From the IMG/VR virus record IMGVR_UViG_3300032292_000321, positions 1 through 27,868 of that record: a stretch of DNA of 27,868 bases; one strand, written 5' to 3'. The position numbers and the translations under genes are program-made. This stretch comes from a virus. Taxonomy: Duplodnaviria > Caudoviricetes. Positions 3,671 through 13,372 of this stretch are shown in pieces (positions within the stretch are counted from its first letter, which is position 1; each line of letters begins with the position of its first letter). Below the pieces are notes generated by a model that worked only from the letters and a program-made list of their open reading frames with translations, was not told where the DNA came from and did no database searches.

Positions 3671-3718
3671 CCATGCACAGATCACGGCGACGATCGCGCA
3701 GACGGTCATCCAGATCAC
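3650..3718 (-). CDS. 22-aa hydrophobic peptide MIWMTVCAIVAVICAWLFDDGE (not in ORF track)
   Basis: GTG start overlaps the TGA of the upstream gene (GTGA coupling). One hydrophobic helix plus an acidic tail; overlaps the last 21 nt of the primase gene. Confidence 0.5.
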   Translation of the reverse strand: MIWMTVCAIVAVICAWLFDDGE

Positions 3719-3981
3719 GGCTCACCGTCTCGCGCGACGTCGGCGCGTCGCAGTAGCTCGCGCTCGAGCTCGTCATACCCCAGCGCCCGCGCGGCGACAG
3801 CTTGCAGCAAGTAGACGACGCGGCCGCCACCGGAGCACGCGAGGATACCCTCGAGCGCTTGCCGGTAGCGCTCCGCGCGCTTGTCTGGTGGCTCCCAGCG
3901 CGCGGCCGCTTGGCCGTGGGGTATGTCCTCGACTTCCCATAGCTCGCGCTGTTCGTCCTCAGTCAAAAACAGTTTGCCCAT
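3715..3981 (-). CDS. Hypothetical protein (88 aa, MGKLFLTEDEQREL...)
   Basis: Part of ORF 3715..4047; start moved to the ATG at 3981, which follows GGTGA and the upstream stop. Confidence 0.6.
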   Translation of the reverse strand: MGKLFLTEDEQRELWEVEDIPHGQAAARWEPPDKRAERYRQALEGILACSGGGRVVYLLQAVAARALGYDELERELLRRADVARDGEP

Positions 3982-3985
3982 GCTG

Positions 3986-4111
3986 TCACCAATAAACGGA
4001 GTCACCATGCCAGCGGCGCACGCATGCCCAGTTGGGCGGCGGCACATGTGCCCATTGTCGCCGCTCGTCGTCGTGCCTCTGGCACCATATCCGCAAAAGG
4101 TAGCGCAACAT
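3986..4111 (-). CDS. Hypothetical 41-aa protein (MLRYLLRIWCQRHDDERRQWAHVPPPNWAC...)
   Basis: TAATG coupling with the upstream gene at 4109-4113; fills the gap in a tightly packed operon. Confidence 0.5.
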   Translation of the reverse strand: MLRYLLRIWCQRHDDERRQWAHVPPPNWACVRRWHGDSVYW

Positions 4112-4386
4112 TAAAGCCTCCGCAGCTCGTCGCTTGCCCGTTGTAAATCGTCCTCGAGCGTCTCGAGTGTAGCCCGCAGCGCGCCAAATGCGCGCCGCTC
4201 GGCCGCCATGGCCGCGTGCCCGGCCGCACGCGCGGCGAGATAGTCCGGCGGCCAGTCCTCGGGCATGCGCTCGTCGTACCCGGTGCCATCGCATGCCCAG
4301 CATGTGACAGCGCCGCCGTCGTCGTCGACGGCGAGCGCGTCATACCCGGAGCCCGCACAACAGCTGCAGCGCGGGCGCGCCATCAT
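4111..4386 (-). CDS. Small zinc-finger protein with two DnaJ-type CxxCxGxG motifs
   Basis: CSCCAGSG and CWACDGTG followed by a helical tail; ATGA coupling at 4383-4386. Confidence 0.7.
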   Translation of the reverse strand: MMARPRCSCCAGSGYDALAVDDDGGAVTCWACDGTGYDERMPEDWPPDYLAARAAGHAAMAAERRAFGALRATLETLEDDLQRASDELRRL

Positions 4387-4736
4387 CGCAGCGCTTCCCA
4401 TGCGGCGCCCGCGCGGCGCTCGAGCGTGAAATTGCCCAGCGGCCGCCGGCGCAGGATGTTAGACGCCGGCCACACCAGCACCACCGTACCGGCGTCGTAC
4501 CGCCAGCAGCCCTCTTCCGTGCGGCCGTCGCTCAACATGTAGAAGGTGCGCCGCATGCCCTCGAGGTTTTCCGGCGTCGTCTGTAGCCGCGCGGCGTCGA
4601 GCGCGAGCGTGCAGGGCTCCGTCGTCAGAATGGTTTTCGCGCGCCAGTCGCCCTCGACGCCGGCGGTAGCGAACACGTCCGCATGTGCAGTGGTGATGGT
4701 GGCCGCGATCACGGCCGGAAGAATCAACTTTTTCAT
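4383..4736 (-). CDS. Putative exported protein (117 aa)
   Basis: Signal-peptide-like N-terminus MKKLILPAVIAATITTAHA; two cysteines; RBS AAGGA. Confidence 0.7.
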   Translation of the reverse strand: MKKLILPAVIAATITTAHADVFATAGVEGDWRAKTILTTEPCTLALDAARLQTTPENLEGMRRTFYMLSDGRTEEGCWRYDAGTVVLVWPASNILRRRPLGNFTLERRAGAAWEALR

Positions 4737-4769
4737 GGCTTCATTTCCTTTAGGTTAGTGGACAAAAAA

Positions 4770-5066
4770 CTAGGCGGCGTCGCCGTCGACGCGCGCGAGT
4801 AACGCTCGCGCGTCACTTGCGCATCGTTGGCAACTGCCTTGCATCGGGCCGGCAAGCTGGCCCAGCTTGCGCAATAAAAACTCGGCGTCACGCAGCGCGT
4901 CGGCGAGCTCCGGCGCTGCGGCGATTAGGCGCGCGTTCGCCTCGATTCGCTCGACGTCCACGCCGTCGCAGTCGATCATAGCGACGCGGCCGTCGCGGTC
5001 GATAACGTCTAGGTCTCGTGTTGCAAGCCCATCGAGGCGCCATACCGCCGTCGTGTACGCGCTCAT
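4770..5066 (-). CDS. Hypothetical phage protein with ANARLIAAAPEL motif
   Basis: The motif recurs in small phage early proteins; ATGA coupling, RBS GAGGTG. Confidence 0.7.
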   Translation of the reverse strand: MSAYTTAVWRLDGLATRDLDVIDRDGRVAMIDCDGVDVERIEANARLIAAAPELADALRDAEFLLRKLGQLAGPMQGSCQRCASDARALLARVDGDAA

Positions 5067-5269
5067 GGCGTCACCTCGACGTCGCTGTAAATCTGCGCCT
5101 CTTCGCGCAGTCGCTCGAGCTTGACGTGCACCAGCTCGAGGCCGTTATCGCCGTCGCCATCGAGTAGGCGGCACGCGTCAGCTAGCACATGATCGAGCAG
5201 CTCGAGCCGCGATAGCGTCGCGTCGGCCGAATAGGTGAGCGTTACAGTCGCTCGGACTTCCTGATACAT
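5063..5269 (-). CDS. Hypothetical acidic protein (68 aa, MYQEVRATVTLTY...EVTP)
   Basis: 3' part of ORF 5063..5404; ATG at 5269 preceded by AAGGGGG. Confidence 0.6.
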   Translation of the reverse strand: MYQEVRATVTLTYSADATLSRLELLDHVLADACRLLDGDGDNGLELVHVKLERLREEAQIYSDVEVTP

Positions 5270-5282
5270 GGCGGCGCCCCCC

Positions 5283-5675
5283 TTACCGATACCAGTAGGG
5301 GCGGCCGTCGACGTCGATCTGCGAGTAGTCCTCGCGGATGTTGCGCGCGGTAGCCGCCCAGTCGACGACGATATAGTGCGGCATGTCACGCGGCACGCCG
5401 CCACAGTCGACGACTAACTCAGTCGCGTACTCAATGAAGAACTCGTCGTCTATCAGCTGCAGCGGATACCAGTCGCCGCGCCACTCCTCGTCGCCACCGT
5501 ACCCGGCCAGCTCCTCGAGTAACGCGCACAACGCCGCATGTTCTGAGGCCAATTCAGGATGCGCGGCGGCCGTCGCCGTGTAAGTCGTCAATTCTTCCGC
5601 CAGCTCTTCAACGCGGGCAATTATGTCGCGCACGTCGATCACGTCGGCAGTCAAGTCCAATTCAGTCGATTGCAT
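5283..5675 (-). CDS. ArdA-like antirestriction (DNA-mimic) protein, 130 aa
   Basis: RBS AGGAG before ATG 5675. About 29 D/E versus 8 R and no K (hand count). C-terminal EYATELVVDCGGVPRDMPHYIVVDWAATARNIREDY resembles the ArdA C-terminal domain. Confidence 0.6.
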   Translation of the reverse strand: MQSTELDLTADVIDVRDIIARVEELAEELTTYTATAAAHPELASEHAALCALLEELAGYGGDEEWRGDWYPLQLIDDEFFIEYATELVVDCGGVPRDMPHYIVVDWAATARNIREDYSQIDVDGRPYWYR

Positions 5676-5704
5676 GTTGTGTGCTCCTAGTGTGGTGATG
5701 ATGA

Positions 5705-6481
5705 TCAAGCGGCCGCGTCGACGTCGGCGGGCGTCGGCGCTGGTGTGTCGGCGTGCGCCTCAGCGAGCGCGTCCTCGAGCGCGCCGGCGCCGATCGCGCC
5801 GCGCATGGGCATGACGACGGCGACGGCGTCCGGCTGGCCGTCAGTGATGATGGCCGGCGACGTGCCGCGAGTGTGGATCCGCACGGCGTGCCGGCCGGCC
5901 GCCTTTTTCGACACGTTGCGCAGGATGGCGAGCGCGTCGCACGCGTCGGCGACATACTGCCAGTTGGTGCACGACAGCTCGAGCGCGCCCAGCTGATCGG
6001 CCGCCGGCATGACGCGGCGCCATTGTGGGAAGTGCCCATCGAGCGGCCGGAAGCCGACAGCGCCGCCGTTCGGTACCGCGATCGTGCCCTCAGGCTGGCG
6101 GATGATGTGCACGTTTGCGCGCGTCGCATCGGGCTCGCGCACCCATCGCAGGGTCACCAGCACGTCGACGTCGCCTAGGCGCTTACCGCGCGCATACTCG
6201 CCGCTATAGAGCTTCAACGCGGCGTCGATCGCGTCGTTCGGAATGATCACGCCGTCGCGCAGCTCTGGCGGCATGACCGCCTTGTCGTACGCTCGAGCGT
6301 GCACGATACCCGGCGCCGACACCACCAGCATGCGGTGGCCGTCAGTGGCGACGACCTTGCCGGCCGTCACGTCGAGATAGACGCCGTTCAAATAGGAGCG
6401 GATATCCCCCTCGGCCGTGTGGGTACGCGCAGCGCGCAGGGTCGCCAGCGATACAGTCAAATGCAGTTCGTAAGTGCTCAT
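5705..6481 (-). CDS. DNA polymerase III beta-clamp (DnaN) homologue lacking domain I, 258 aa
   Basis: DIRSYLNGVYL...VVATDGHRM (DnaN central domain), LDGHFPQWRRVMP (domain II-III linker), AVVMPMR (DnaN C-terminal strand). RBS GAGGG before ATG 6481. Confidence 0.8.
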   Translation of the reverse strand: MSTYELHLTVSLATLRAARTHTAEGDIRSYLNGVYLDVTAGKVVATDGHRMLVVSAPGIVHARAYDKAVMPPELRDGVIIPNDAIDAALKLYSGEYARGKRLGDVDVLVTLRWVREPDATRANVHIIRQPEGTIAVPNGGAVGFRPLDGHFPQWRRVMPAADQLGALELSCTNWQYVADACDALAILRNVSKKAAGRHAVRIHTRGTSPAIITDGQPDAVAVVMPMRGAIGAGALEDALAEAHADTPAPTPADVDAAA

Positions 6482-6503
6482 CTGTAATGCCCTCGAGTGT
6501 GGG

Positions 6504-6650
6504 TTAGTTGCGGATGTGATCGATGACGCACGCCAGCGCGACAACGGCCGTGCTGGCGATTAGGAGCGGCAGCTCACCCCAATAGACGGCCGCCAAAAAG
6601 GCGGCGCATCCAATGGTGGCGAGCGCGTTGGACAGTTGGCGGGCGCTCAT
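6504..6650 (-). CDS. 48-aa membrane protein with two hydrophobic segments (not in ORF track)
   Basis: MSARQLSNALATIGCAAFLAAVYWGELPLLIASTAVVALACVIDHIRN; ATGA coupling and RBS GAGGTG. Confidence 0.65.
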   Translation of the reverse strand: MSARQLSNALATIGCAAFLAAVYWGELPLLIASTAVVALACVIDHIRN

Positions 6651-6865
6651 GGCGTCACCTCGAGCTCGTTCGCCGCGTGAATCGCGTTATCGAATTCTCG
6701 CAGCAACGCATAAAGCTGAAACGCGTCGGCTCGCGCGTCGGATGGGTCGCGCTCGAGCGCGTCGATCAACGCGCGCCGCAACCAATAGCTGGTCGCCGGG
6801 TGCGCGATCGTCGCCGTGAGGCGCTCGCGCGCGTCGAGCACGCGAACAGGCATCGGCGCGCTCAT
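6647..6865 (-). CDS. Hypothetical protein (72 aa) with SYWLRRAL..ALERDP.DA..DA motif
   Basis: 3' part of ORF 6647..6949; ATGA coupling at 6862-6865. The motif resembles a small helical family I recall from proteobacterial mobile elements. Confidence 0.6.
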   Translation of the reverse strand: MSAPMPVRVLDARERLTATIAHPATSYWLRRALIDALERDPSDARADAFQLYALLREFDNAIHAANELEVTP

Positions 6866-6933
6866 GAGCGCACCGCCAGCATGTAGTACTTGATCTGCCC
6901 GTAGATATGGCGCTGTTCGACTTGAATGATCAT
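6862..6933 (-). CDS. 23-aa ORF MIIQVEQRHIYGQIKYYMLAVRS, possibly a truncated gene
   Basis: ATGA-coupled at both ends; RBS GAGGTG. Confidence 0.5.
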   Translation of the reverse strand: MIIQVEQRHIYGQIKYYMLAVRS

Positions 6934-7094
6934 GACTTGGACACCTCATTAGCTGAGAAAAGGCAAACGAGCGCGGCTGCCACCGCGATCAGCGAGGGGA
7001 TGCCGACACCGCCAGACTCGGCGGCGATCAGAACGCCAAGGGCCATTTCGACCATGGCGAGAAGTTGAAAGAACGCGACGAGTAAAAGTTTCAT
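6930..7094 (-). CDS. 54-aa membrane protein with two hydrophobic segments (not in ORF track)
   Basis: MKLLLVAFFQLLAMVEMALGVLIAAESGGVGIPSLIAVAAALVCLFSANEVSKS; strong RBS AGGAG directly downstream of the ribozyme. Confidence 0.7.
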   Translation of the reverse strand: MKLLLVAFFQLLAMVEMALGVLIAAESGGVGIPSLIAVAAALVCLFSANEVSKS

Positions 7095-7111
7095 GCTGTT
7101 CTCCTATTGTT

Positions 7112-7161
7112 GGTCACATCAGTAGCGGCGTTACCGCTAGACGCCTCACGGCGTTTCGACC
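7112..7161 (-). ncRNA. Hammerhead ribozyme, type II topology, A9U core variant
   Basis: Minus strand reads GGUC GAAA CGCC GUGA GGCG UC UAGCGG UAACG CCGCUA CUGAUGU GACC. Stem II is GGUC/GACC, stem III ACGCC/GGCGU, the cleavage triplet GUC, stem I UAGCGG/CCGCUA, and the core CUGAUG(U) plus GAAA. Confidence 0.85.
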
Positions 7162-7163
7162 TG

Positions 7164-7394
7164 TTAGGCAACCTTGGGGTAGGAACGCTCCAGACGCTCC
7201 TTCTTGTCGGCCTTGCGGTAGGCTTCCGAAACCTTTCGACCTAGTCCCGAAACCGCCAAGTACTTGTTCCAAACCTCGTCTTGCTCTGGCGAAAAATTAG
7301 GCAATTCGTTGTACTTGTCCAGCAATCGAATGCACTCGTTGTTCATAGCGATGCTGATTGCTGAAAGTTCGTAAGCGCTGAGTTCGATTCGCAT
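7164..7394 (-). CDS. Hypothetical protein, first gene of leftward operon (76 aa; alternative start 7409)
   Basis: ORF 7164..7409; GAGGT precedes the ATG at 7394; visibly more AT-rich than neighbouring genes. Confidence 0.65.
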   Translation of the reverse strand: MRIELSAYELSAISIAMNNECIRLLDKYNELPNFSPEQDEVWNKYLAVSGLGRKVSEAYRKADKKERLERSYPKVA

Positions 7395-7451
7395 TTTCGT
7401 GTACCTCATTTCGCGCCGCCGGCTGGCGCTGTTTTCGTGCCGGCGGGGTCT

Positions 7452-7492
7452 ATTGTATTGGCGAGCGCAAGATCAACAAATAGTTTTTTATA
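7452..7492 (-). promoter_or_regulatory. Sigma70-like promoter of leftward operon with AT-rich UP-like element
   Basis: TTGTTG (7479-7474), 16 nt, TACAAT (7457-7452); TATAAAAAACTAT upstream. Confidence 0.55.
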
Positions 7493-7532
7493 GTGTGACC
7501 ATTGTGCGGATAGTCGCTCGAGCGCGCGAATG

Positions 7533-7930
7533 TTGGGTCATTTAGGTCGAGGTTGGGTTATGAGCGCGGCGAGAATGACCCACGCGCTCGAGCTTGAAAA
7601 CATAGGGCGCGAGAGGGTTTTGGGTCATTTAGGTCATGGGTTTTGATTAAATCTAAAAAGTTTCTACATACTGTATAGGCGTACAGCGGTGAGCTGCAGC
7701 GGCGCACAATGAAGCGGCGCTCCGACTTTTTTTCGATGGCTAAATGACCCAAGTGACCCAAAGCGCCCATGCCGCCATGCCCACGCCCGCATGCCTTTGG
7801 GCATTTTGGGCAATCGGCACGCCATGACCTAAATGACCCAAAAGCTGGCGCCCTGGTGCTCGAGCGCGCGCCGTCGCCCTGGTGCTCGAGCGCGCGCACC
7901 GGCTCGCATGCCATGACCTAAATGACCCAA
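7533..7930. repeat. Convergent iteron array around an AT-rich core; putative replication origin
   Basis: TTGGGTCATTTAGGTC(ATGG) at 7533 and 7620; its reverse complement CCATGACCTAAATGACCCAA at 7822 and 7911; variants at 7553, 7574, 7737-7761 and 7796-7814; AT-rich 7641-7677. Confidence 0.75.
7849..7897 (+). repeat. 23-bp direct repeat CGCCCTGGTGCTCGAGCGCGCGC x2
   Basis: Exact copies at 7849-7871 and 7875-7897. Confidence 0.9.
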
Positions 7931-8092
7931 CGCCGACGGCCGACGCGCGCGACGCTCGAGCTCGAGCGCTGGCGGGCTGGCGGGCGGGGGGCGCCCGGCT
8001 CCGGGCTGGCGCTGCGGGCTGGCGGCCGCTGGCCGCTGGCATGGGGGGGTAGGGCCCGAGGGCACCCGGTCAAAATTACGGGGAGCGTCCGC

Positions 8093-8153
8093 AAAAAATT
8101 TTTTATTTTTTTAGCAATCACGCTTGCCGCCCTGTGCTTTCATCCAGTAACCT
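8093..8153 (+). promoter_or_regulatory. Putative promoter of packaging/late operon
   Basis: A/T tract 8093-8112, TTGCCG (8124-8129), 18 nt, TAACCT (8148-8153); ATG 6 nt downstream. Confidence 0.45.
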
Positions 8154-8159
8154 TCGGCC

Positions 8160-8612
8160 ATGTCCTTCAAGTCTTTGCCGTTCGCACCGCGCGAGGTGAA
8201 AGCTACCGAGAAGACGCTGCAGGCGATTTACGACGCCGCCGCACTCGGGCTAAAAGGTGATACGTTGGCGCTGGCAGCTGGATTGCTGCCGGTCGAGTAC
8301 CGGCGTTTGTGCCAGCTAGATCCGATGGCCCAACTGGCCGAAGAGAAGGGACGCGCTGATGGACACGTCGAAGCCGCCACGCAACTGCGCGAAGCCGCGC
8401 GTCAAGGGGACTCTAAGGCTGCCCTATCCATACTCACGCATGTGCACGGCTGGGTGGCGAAGCAACAGGTGCAAGTCGACATACAGCAGCAGATCAGCAT
8501 CACGGCAGCACTGCGAGAGGCGGAATCGCGCGTCATTGCTGGCCGCCTGGCGCAAGATGATCGCCCCTCACTAACGATCGACCAGCCAACGCATGCAAAC
8601 GCCGATCTATAG
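8160..8612 (+). CDS. Probable terminase small subunit
   Basis: 150 aa, helical, directly upstream of and overlapping the large subunit; call rests mainly on position. Confidence 0.6.
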   Translation: MSFKSLPFAPREVKATEKTLQAIYDAAALGLKGDTLALAAGLLPVEYRRLCQLDPMAQLAEEKGRADGHVEAATQLREAARQGDSKAALSILTHVHGWVAKQQVQVDIQQQISITAALREAESRVIAGRLAQDDRPSLTIDQPTHANADL

Positions 8613-10877: not shown

Positions 10878-13013
10878 ATGGCTCAAGACCCGACAGGCAT
10901 GAAAGGCGCGGCGCAAGTCGCCAACAGTCCGCAATCGCGTCGCACTAAGGACGCCGCTGATGTGTTGGCGCGTATGCGCGACCGTCTGGAACAATCCTTG
11001 TCGGCGTACAGTGACTCGAGAGACAGCGAGCTCGATGACTTGCGCTTTATGGCGGGGTCTCCCGACAACCGCTGGCAGTGGCCGCAAGAAGTGTTGGCTA
11101 CGCGCGGCGCGGTGCAAGGTCAAACGATCAACGCACGTCCGTGTCTGACGATCAACAAGCTGCCACAGCATGTGCGCCAGGTCACAAACGATCAGCGCCA
11201 GAATCGTCCGTCGGGCAAAGTCATTCCGGTCGATGATCAGGCTGACGTCGAAGTAGCTGACGTACTCAATGGCGTGGTGCGTCACATTGAGTACATGTCA
11301 GACGCCGACGTGGTGTATGACACGGCGTGCGACAACCAAGTGACGTACGGCGAAGGCTACTTCCGTATTTTAACGGAATACTGCGACGATACGAGCTTCG
11401 ATCAAGACCTTCGCCTGCAGCGCATCCGTAATTCGTTCAGCGTCTACATGGATCCGCACATTCAAGACCCGTGCGGATCGGACGCTGAGTATTGCTTCAT
11501 TACCGAAGACATGCCGAAAGACGAGTTTGCGCGTTTGTTCCCCGACGCCGAACCGATTTCATCTATTTCAACGCGCGGCGTAGGCGACGAGCAGCTCTCG
11601 CAGTGGATTTTGGAAGACTCAGTGCGTATCGCCGAGTATTTCTATACGGTCTACGACAAAGCAACGCTGCATTTGTACCCCAACAACCAAACTGCTTACG
11701 CCGGATCACCCGAAGCGCGGCAGATGGAGATGATGGGCGTGCGTCCGCTGCGCATCCGCGAGGTCGAAATCCGCAAAATTAAGTGGATGAAGACCAACGG
11801 CTACGAAATTCTTGAAGAACAAGACTGGCCGGGCAGATGGATCCCGGTTATTCGCGTCATCGGCAACGAATTTGAAGTCGAGGGGCGCATTTACATCTCG
11901 GGTTTGGTCAGAAATGCCAAAGATGCCCAGAGAATGTACAACTACTGGGTGTCGCAAGAGGCTGAAATGCTTGCGCTGGCGCCAAAAGCGCCGTTTATCG
12001 GCTACGGCGGTCAGTTTGAAGGCTATGAGCACCAGTGGAAGACCGCCAACACGACAAATTGGCCGTATTTGGAGGTCAATCCCGACGTAACCGACGGTCA
12101 AGGCGCCGTTTTGCCGCTGCCGCAGCGCGCACAGCCGCCTTTGGCTCAAACTGGCTTGATTCAAGCCAAAATGGGCGCCTCGGACGACATTAAATCGACC
12201 ACTGGATACTACGATTCTAGCCTCGGAGCGACGTCAAACGAGCGTTCTGGGCGGGCCATCTTGGCGCGTGAACGGCAAGGCGACACAGGTTCATATCACT
12301 ACGTTGACAACTTAGCTCGCGCTATACGCTACGGGACGCGCCAACTTATCGACTTGATCCCGAAAATCTACGACACCCAGCGCATCGCGCGGATCATTGG
12401 CATTGACGGCGAGACGTCGACGGTGCGCATCGACCCGACGCAGGAAGAGGCCGTGCGCCAGGTCGTCAACGAGGCGGGGATTGTGATCGAGAAGATCTAC
12501 AACCCGTCGGTCGGTAAGTACGACGTGGCGGTGACGACGGGCCCGTCGTACCTGACCAAGCGGCAGGAAGCGATGGACGCCATGTCGCAGATCCTGCAGG
12601 CCAATCCTGAGCTGTGGAATGTGGCCGGCGACCTGTTCGTTAAGAACATGGACTGGCCGGGCGCTCAGGAAATCGCCAAGCGCCTGCAGAAGACGATCGA
12701 GCCGCGCATCCTCGAGGATGAAGAGGATCCAGCGCTGCAGGCCGTCAAGATGGAGAACGACGCGCTCAAGCAGCAGATGCAAGAGATGCGCGTGATGCTT
12801 GATAGCGTTCAGAAATCAATCGACGAGCGCGAAGTACGCGTTAAGGAGTACGATGCGGAAACTAAACGCATCAATACCGTCCAGGCGGGCATGACGCCTG
12901 AGCAGATACAGGACATAGTGATGGGCACTATTAGTGGCATGATGACGTCAGGCGATCTTGTTGCGCCGGTTCCACGTGAAACCGCTATGCCGATGGAGTT
13001 ACCGCCGCAATGA
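10878..13013 (+). CDS. Portal protein, P22-like
   Basis: 711 aa after terminase; DDLRF..G..QWP, RPCLTINKL, GLVRNAKDAQRMYNY, SGRAILAR, GKYDVAVTTGPSY.TKRQEA; C-terminal coiled coil. Confidence 0.93.
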   Translation: MAQDPTGMKGAAQVANSPQSRRTKDAADVLARMRDRLEQSLSAYSDSRDSELDDLRFMAGSPDNRWQWPQEVLATRGAVQGQTINARPCLTINKLPQHVRQVTNDQRQNRPSGKVIPVDDQADVEVADVLNGVVRHIEYMSDADVVYDTACDNQVTYGEGYFRILTEYCDDTSFDQDLRLQRIRNSFSVYMDPHIQDPCGSDAEYCFITEDMPKDEFARLFPDAEPISSISTRGVGDEQLSQWILEDSVRIAEYFYTVYDKATLHLYPNNQTAYAGSPEARQMEMMGVRPLRIREVEIRKIKWMKTNGYEILEEQDWPGRWIPVIRVIGNEFEVEGRIYISGLVRNAKDAQRMYNYWVSQEAEMLALAPKAPFIGYGGQFEGYEHQWKTANTTNWPYLEVNPDVTDGQGAVLPLPQRAQPPLAQTGLIQAKMGASDDIKSTTGYYDSSLGATSNERSGRAILARERQGDTGSYHYVDNLARAIRYGTRQLIDLIPKIYDTQRIARIIGIDGETSTVRIDPTQEEAVRQVVNEAGIVIEKIYNPSVGKYDVAVTTGPSYLTKRQEAMDAMSQILQANPELWNVAGDLFVKNMDWPGAQEIAKRLQKTIEPRILEDEEDPALQAVKMENDALKQQMQEMRVMLDSVQKSIDEREVRVKEYDAETKRINTVQAGMTPEQIQDIVMGTISGMMTSGDLVAPVPRETAMPMELPPQ

Positions 13014-13372
13014 CATGCGAAGTCTTTATCGGACGGCTATTTCTGGCGCGAGATGTAGCTCACTCTACTCATCTCAATACCCGCAATTTTGCCAAGCATA
13101 AAGCACTGCAAAAGTTTTATGAGGGCGTTATTCCGCTCGCTGACGACTTTGCAGAAGCCTATCAGGGTCGCTACGGGCTAATCGGCCCGATCGCTTTGGC
13201 GTCTGCCCAGAAGTCCAACAACGTGCTTGACTTTCTCGAAAAGGAGCTTAAAGAACTCGAGGAAATGCGGTATAAGGTCGTCGATAAAGACGACACGACG
13301 CTGCAGAATTTGATGGACGCTATCTTCGGCTTGTATCTATCCACCATTTACAAATTGAAATTCTTGGCTTGA
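13010..13372 (+). CDS. Ferritin/Dps-like four-helix protein (DUF5856-like)
   Basis: H..H..T..FA.HKAL..FYE.....D.FAEAYQG.YG...IYKLKFL pattern. Confidence 0.7.
   Translation: MTCEVFIGRLFLARDVAHSTHLNTRNFAKHKALQKFYEGVIPLADDFAEAYQGRYGLIGPIALASAQKSNNVLDFLEKELKELEEMRYKVVDKDDTTLQNLMDAIFGLYLSTIYKLKFLA

Follow-up and report, generated by a model that had tools for sequence, protein, structure and literature searches.

The window considered here is the whole 27,868-nt stretch of DNA from a Caudoviricetes virus (IMG/VR record IMGVR_UViG_3300032292_000321), a record that is 75% complete and contains DNA polymerase, primase, terminase, portal and major head genes. Its best terminase relatives are ctNMl277 and DSL-LC05 (68-69%), followed by Ralstonia phages (49%), and the sequence points to a proteobacterial host. 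A leftward run of small genes, presumably expressed early to judge from their layout, has a hammerhead ribozyme fold just behind its first gene. This first gene, gene X, has no Pfam or PHROG family and no named Atlas neighbour (best score 0.86), and its stop codon ends 2 nt before stem II of the fold. Homologues of the gene that follows, gene Y, are preceded by a hammerhead in all five loci. Farther along the operon, a first-pass annotation had named a sliding-clamp homologue and an ArdA-like gene. Both labels are weakly supported: the clamp label by a PHROG 947 match, made on the ORF 5705-6544, and a Pfam score below cut-off, and the ArdA-like label by a Pfam score that also falls below cut-off (Table 1).

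Scanning detected no promoter-like or terminator-like site in 7095-7163 and no promoter upstream of gene X. A weak promoter-like spacing ending in TACAAT can be seen by eye on the minus strand at 7451-7478, below the scan threshold and at the edge of the variable cassette described below. Just upstream of gene X, a GC-rich inverted repeat (7413-7443) is terminator-like on the plus strand and was not seen in orthologous loci.

Table 1. Features of the ribozyme locus and of its operon, in window coordinates.
Feature	Position	Strand	Basis
Gene X, upstream gene, 76 aa from ATG 7394 (ORF start possible at 7409)	7164..7394	minus	ORF
Gene Y, downstream gene, 54 aa, hydrophobic, no Pfam/PHROG family	6930..7094	minus	ORF
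Sliding-clamp-like gene, same leftward operon	5705..6484	minus	PHROG 947 E 1.3e-9; Pfam PF02767 E 4.6e-4, below cut-off
ArdA-like gene (weak), same leftward operon	5283..5678	minus	Pfam PF07275 E 5.5e-4, below cut-off
Strain-variable cassette: gene X, ribozyme, gene Y	6888..7473	minus	blastn gap in L130-L139
Type II hammerhead fold, compact, pseudoknot-free, 17-nt stem I hairpin	7112..7161	minus	finder, folding, 46-homologue covariation
Stem II first arm GGUC (11.4-11.1), partner 7115-7112	7158..7161	minus	sequence
Core strand GAAA: G12 A13 A14 A15.1	7154..7157	minus	sequence
Stem III, CGCC-GUGA-GGCG, GUGA (GNRA) loop at 7149-7146	7141..7154	minus	sequence, covariation, folding
Predicted scissile bond after GUC, C17 = 7140	7139..7140	minus	hammerhead consensus
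Stem I hairpin UAGCGG-UAACG-CCGCUA, loop UAACG (UNmYN type)	7123..7139	minus	sequence, folding
Core strand CUGAUGU, U9 at 7116 replacing consensus A9	7116..7122	minus	sequence
Stem II second arm GACC, G10.1-C11.1 pair kept	7112..7115	minus	sequence
A immediately 5' of stem II; predicted partner of U7133 (loop I first base)	7162	minus	inferred
Shine-Dalgarno AGGAG of gene Y, whose ATG starts at 7094	7101..7105	minus	sequence

The 69-nt gap between the ORFs at 7164-7409 and 6930-7094 (7095-7163) had been described as almost entirely filled by a type II hammerhead on the minus strand, and sequence, stems and core are as claimed: 7161-7112 is a type II hammerhead fold, a minor variant of a published element type. 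Read along the minus strand, the TAA stop of gene X (7166-7164) is followed by CA and then by stem II, which begins at 7161. Sequence, folding and covariation agree on a three-way junction in which stem II has four Watson-Crick pairs, stem III four plus A15.1-U16.1, and stem I six plus a closing U-G pair. Stem II is open and stems I and III are loop-closed, which is the type II topology. C3 U4 G5 A6 N7 G8, G12 A13 A14, A15.1-U16.1 and H17 are all present, as is G10.1-C11.1, the first pair of stem II, and the sole core deviation is, as first reported, the U at position 9 (CUGAUGU). A9 belongs to the published minimal hammerhead core (PMC7151607) and makes a sheared pair with G12, the general base (PMC11300833), and the A9 phosphate together with G10.1 constitutes a metal site (PMC7151607). 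Since U stands at 7116 in place of the A9 of this sheared pair, the element is filed as a variant and not as a plain member of RF02276.

The minimum-energy fold of 7095-7170 is the hammerhead structure (z -2.1; 6/200 shuffles as good), with stem II lengthened by a G12-U9 wobble that could, on this model, misplace G12. The pair probability of stem II is 0.81 when 7170-7080 is folded and 0.05-0.32 in longer equilibrium contexts. The hammerhead consensus applied to the sequence puts the predicted cut after GUC, at 7140/7139 as originally proposed, and in computed folds the 3' product would start with a base-paired (hairpin) 5' end, 34 nt before the AGGAG (earlier given as about 35). Cleavage as a translation switch for gene Y was considered and rejected: the Shine-Dalgarno and AUG are predicted to pair with the gene's own coding start (7060-7110) in the cut and the uncut message, so cutting is not predicted to open the Shine-Dalgarno. 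The pseudoknot between loop I and the 3' tail that is typical of most type II hammerheads is not found here, the tail AACAAU holding no complement of the loop UAACG. An alternative U.A contact between loops I and II (UNmYN / RNnA) fits the sequence at U7133, A7162 and A7111.

How secure is the element, and how secure is the U? A strict type II finder with position 9 left free gives one match in the window, and no second hammerhead of any of three topologies was found by the finder in its whole length. None of 500 dinucleotide-shuffled windows matches at equal stem quality; five matches appear at looser quality. The Rfam search suggested in the first-pass annotation returned no hammerhead match on the window even at E<=10, the gathering score of RF02276 being 37 bits, and the A9 orthologues described below score 25-31 bits, also under that threshold. 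As RF02276 passes 7 of 8 pseudoknot-type A9 loci and none of 10 compact loci, the window element is missed by Rfam because of its compact form together with U9. A chance arrangement would account for the missing Rfam match and for the modest folding z-score, but the shuffled windows, the RF02276 scores of the A9 orthologues, and the covariation and orthologous position reported below leave it a negligible probability, and conservation at the orthologous site refutes it. A sequencing or assembly error over a true A9 is very improbable as well. A9 does stand at this junction in all other contigs and loci examined, but a separately assembled Logan contig from run X1 (depth 17) has the same base and 0 differences from 6800-7500; because run X1 is possibly the window's own source, and the reads possibly the same, this match argues only against an assembly slip, which is unlikely. 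Against GenBank phages, blastn of 3700-8600 gave no match. For the 71-nt element, 13 partial matches turned up, each below 80% coverage.

Sequence-only pattern scans of IMG/VR viral contigs, in which the pattern fixes GTC/GAC and the core, lead to an estimate of about 1,600 matching stretches (from 5/64 parts); contrary to the rarity implied by the first-pass annotation, such elements are common in phages. Stems I and III are formed by 137 of 140 distinct matches, and position 9 is A in 137 of the 140 and U in 3. The 143 structured copies split into two forms, 85 pseudoknot-type and 58 compact (window included), with the loop I-tail pseudoknot present in 79/85 of the former and 5/58 of the latter. 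In the compact form stem I is a 17-nt hairpin, and most copies have a fourth pair in stem II (55/58), an A just before stem II (55/58), a U opening loop I (55/58) and a purine at the position of A7111 in the window (54/58). For covariation, 46 of the 58 compact copies were aligned, omitting L014, L024, L033, L039, L040, L044, L060, one of L069, L070, two of L084, and L124; in several of the omitted copies stem III is longer or the register of stem I is shifted. In this alignment 99.2% of cells pair and 10 of 16 pairs change on both sides, and the covariation score of 0.658 is reached in 0/500 shuffles, the 46 copies having been pre-filtered for stems and five pairs being fixed by the pattern. 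Since GTC/GAC and the core are fixed, those columns of homologue sets carry no information; it is in the stems that the expected covariation appears, with compensatory changes. The placement of the copies is also regular. An upstream stop lies within 5 nt of GTC or overlaps it in 106/143 copies, compared with 63/1010 control positions, and an ATG led by a Shine-Dalgarno follows 16-40 nt downstream in 89/143 copies, compared with 57/1010 control positions. The stretches examined of the terminase relatives ctNMl277 and DSL-LC05 contain no convincing hammerhead, with one weak match in L222.

Searches with gene X recovered six viral loci and nine metagenome loci, the latter comprising six clear (59-86%) and three weak (38-48%) matches. 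In all 12 clear orthologous loci a ribozyme stands directly 3' of the gene X stop, with its core kept, A at position 9, and stems preserved through compensatory changes; the three weak matches are without a ribozyme. Among sequencing runs X2, X3, X4 and X7, all 10 Logan contigs covering 7116 have A9, many of them probably paralogous copies. One X2 contig is near-identical over 7101-7294 (7 differences in 194 nt), carries A9, and also matches 7365-7500. The intergenic regions thus conserve core and stems, and the U itself is not conserved in the lineage, a point that the first-pass annotation had proposed to examine; as all orthologues have A9, U9 appears to be a recent change private to the window phage.

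Does such a change inactivate the ribozyme? Whole-collection viral scans were run with one core base altered, counting loci that passed the stem rule. Position 9 variants were structured at 10 of 31 loci (9 U, 1 C, 0 G), G5 variants at 2 of 9 and A6 variants at 2 of 24. The U9 loci amount to seven distinct sequences in six independent lineages, and L174, with a bulged stem I that fails the stem rule, is by eye a further U9 lineage. Each of eight other core substitutions yields 0-2 structured loci against six to seven lineages for U9 (Poisson P(>=6) = 5e-5 at the mean of 0.625 of the other eight classes, 0.017 at a mean of 2), and this recurrence, which implies nothing about rate, suggests that U9 is probably tolerated rather than lethal. 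Random decay favours the A-to-G transition, yet G9 was seen 0 times, which also counts for tolerance of U9. Five of seven U9 records contain no form other than U9 among their pattern matches (two copies in G001, a single one in the complete G002), and most U9 copies retain the stop-ribozyme-start spacing. U9 accounts for less than 1% of matches (about 10 of the estimated 1,600 stretches). The C9 copy, by contrast, belongs to an array of 18 type II matches, all on the same strand and within 18 kb of a 65-kb viral contig (G008:C1:42951-60649). In bacterial genomes (14/64 parts, without an A9 denominator) the non-A9 pattern matched 120 loci with 0 U9, and the one locus that passed the stem rule looks like chance. 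Four viral loci (L181, L182, L201, L207) contain well-formed type II hammerheads with G5A, G5C or A6G cores, and these copies are likely inactive.

The element type, its position and its proposed role in splitting mRNA were already published in 2011: type II hammerheads flank prophage genes, processing into gene-length mRNAs was proposed, and prophage arrays, near which ardA was noted, cleave in vitro and in E. coli (PMC3088659). The window element resembles these hammerheads (RF02276) in topology, in its core apart from position 9, in lying between small phage genes, in having an ardA-like gene in its operon, and in the transcript splitting proposed for it. It differs in lacking the loop I-3' tail pseudoknot, in U9 and in being a single copy, and its ardA-like gene is four genes off instead of adjoining the ribozyme. 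The same study also interpreted, and tested, a sequence that occurs naturally in a phage as a U9 hammerhead: the primer table (Table S1) lists a Xanthomonas phage Xp15 construct, 't1-X.phage(cugaagU)', and Fig. S7 draws the Xanthomonas phage example as type I, with more than one deviation, and inactive (PMC3088659). In the Xp15 genome (NC_007024.1, minus strand; L220:456-396) we find a canonical type II hammerhead ending 5 nt before gp01. Its core, at 406-400, lies outside the 490-419 construct, GAAA, stem III and UC being common to both; the construct omits the canonical core and is therefore not a clean test of U9. Four U9 strings that were searched for are absent from the readable text of the PMC3088659 supplements (figure images lay outside the search, and Dataset S1 is possibly incomplete). 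Bcep176 offers a precedent for a phage hammerhead between genes that naturally departs from the consensus at one core base: its A6C core cleaves slowly in Mg2+ and fast in Mn2+ (PMC7151607; PMC3088659); there the change is at position 6 and cleavage is measured, whereas the position 9 change is known from sequence. Searching titles and the starts of abstracts found no paper on an active natural U9 core, most subscription journals being beyond reach, and rates of individual A9 mutants were not found in the texts available, which include part of eLife 80360.

The conserved loop I U and the A before stem II resemble the UNmYN / RNnA loop-loop motif, with a reverse Hoogsteen U.A pair, of viroid and satellite hammerheads (PMC2632901). 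Differently from the viroid motif, loop II is open in the window; the A of the putative contact would thus come from the 5' flank, where it is the second base beyond the stop codon.

The ribozyme also lies within a stretch that varies among strains (Table 1). Ten close backbone relatives were found via the clamp-like gene, with flanks at 78-93% DNA identity, and all ten are without the 6888-7473 cassette and without a type II hammerhead in the DNA examined (an all-topology hammerhead scan covered nine of them). An X3 contig likewise skips 6881-7392. The element is therefore dispensable for the phage backbone, and selection on it may be weak. Where gene X does occur, the ribozyme always comes next and the gene beyond it is one of seven, across 13 loci, and in L216 gene Y follows a different gene, again via a hammerhead. 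L144 and L214 have an identical ribozyme core and different downstream genes, and the window and L141 share both flanking genes and differ in their stems. In L144-L146, L213, L214 and L216, three to four hammerhead copies separate individual genes or small groups of genes. The window phage likely picked up gene X and its ribozyme together, as a cassette, from phages in which hammerheads recur between small genes and mark the sites of gene exchange.

Such short repeated intergenic elements at the joints of exchangeable non-essential genes recall the PeSLs of T4-type phages, promoter-terminator units with demonstrated recombination and mini-circles (PMC2839356). By analogy with these, and from gene order, recombination may take place at the ribozyme repeats. 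Here the repeat is a ribozyme fold, neither a promoter nor a terminator being found in 7095-7163, and the recombination is deduced from gene order only. Repeats at gene joints are seen in the relatives (up to 4 copies in 1.5 kb, 7 downstream genes), and the window has a single copy. No paper describing hammerheads as cassette joints was found by title or abstract start, again with most subscription journals beyond reach.

Our preferred reading, to which we give about even weight, is that the U9 ribozyme likely still cuts at 7140/7139, probably more slowly than an A9 ribozyme would, and so would split the leftward operon message. Stem II would close co-transcriptionally, as its 3' arm is made, and A7162 would dock on U7133 to give a fast-cutting conformation without a pseudoknot. 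U9, as a recent point change, would keep a workable contact with G12 and so be tolerated. Cutting after GUC would separate gene X from the rest of the operon message and leave a hairpin-capped 3' product with a 5'-OH end, 34 nt before the Shine-Dalgarno. A ribosome terminating at TAA 7166-7164 would cover stem II, only two bases away, and block the fold, so that cutting would occur on messages free of a terminating ribosome. RNase E has a 5'-end preference, and under it messages with 5'-OH ends decay more slowly. The 5'-OH together with the terminal hairpin may thus slow 5'-end-dependent decay in a proteobacterial host. The first-pass annotation likewise suggested that such an end may stabilise what it took to be a host-takeover message.

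It is also possible, if in our view doubtful, that U9 has abolished ribozyme activity, wholly or almost so, leaving in the window a newly dead copy of a dispensable element before any further decay. A9 in all orthologues, a cassette missing from close relatives and the G12-U9 wobble of the minimum-energy fold would all suit a dead copy, and the structured G5 and A6 variants (two each) indicate that dead copies can be sampled. The inactive Xp15 U9 construct points the same way, but is confounded by its exclusion of the canonical core just downstream. Loss of function does not readily explain why U9 recurs six to seven times against 0 for G9 and 1 for C9, nor why it is the sole form in five of seven records. 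Might U9 instead be a selected tuning, with cutting made to depend on Mn2+, high Mg2+ or temperature? The Bcep176 A6C core is a precedent (PMC7151607), the A9 phosphate and G10.1 make up a metal site, and U9 recurs; however, U9 is not kept among orthologues and Pfam and PHROG found no metal-related neighbour gene, and we consider this reading improbable.

Seven downstream genes after the same upstream gene, the L144/L214 and window/L141 patterns and the PeSL precedent (PMC2839356) could instead suggest that the element is kept mainly as DNA, a repeated 50-nt homology patch for swaps of small genes, with cutting incidental. The compensatory stem changes, alongside almost fixed catalytic bases, run counter to this, since such changes reduce DNA homology and indicate selection on RNA. 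Phage mosaic joints, moreover, fall at gene boundaries anyway, and we think a role mainly as DNA quite unlikely. A reading that combines the two functions is somewhat better placed and still tentative: U9 may be a naturally working core that has arisen repeatedly and been missed by CUGANGA searches, with compact hammerheads acting both as cutters of the early transcript into gene-sized messages and as crossover patches bounding cassettes of small early genes, one of which the window phage would have taken up.

What self-cleaving ribozymes do in bacteria and phages is in large part unsettled (PMC6765202), and the locus provides a natural test set: one upstream gene, an A9 or U9 ribozyme, seven downstream genes, and near-identical phages free of the cassette. 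Should the U9 core turn out to cut efficiently, the definition of the 'invariant' core would have to be broadened, and pattern searches would be missing a small share of hammerheads (less than 1% here). If the ribozymes are crossover points, they would be the counterpart in these phages of the PeSLs in T4-type phages. If U9 is dead, the window holds an ordinary decaying copy of a known element.

Three further features of these genomes were observed. In three relatives (L141:1880-2009, L143:1880-2009, L212:15-144) the DNA directly before the gene X Shine-Dalgarno, where others have a hammerhead, is a conserved leader of some 130 nt whose end forms a long hairpin interrupted by an internal loop. 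The leader pattern was found in 40 of 41 viral loci (28 distinct; L343-L382), followed by varying genes (X, Y and others); five of its pairs covary in three sequences, it has no Rfam match in 4 + 17 loci, and it is absent from the window. It is possibly an operon leader or a processing site. Non-coding DNA at 7520-7930, which separates the leftward operon from the small terminase gene and is common to close relatives, is rich in copies of a GGGTCATTTAGGTCAT-like motif, both direct and inverted, and in CTCGAG repeats; it is possibly an origin or packaging region. Finally, a gene by the portal gene (13010-13372) matches a starvation-inducible (Dps-like) regulator family (PHROG 858, E 1.5e-23).
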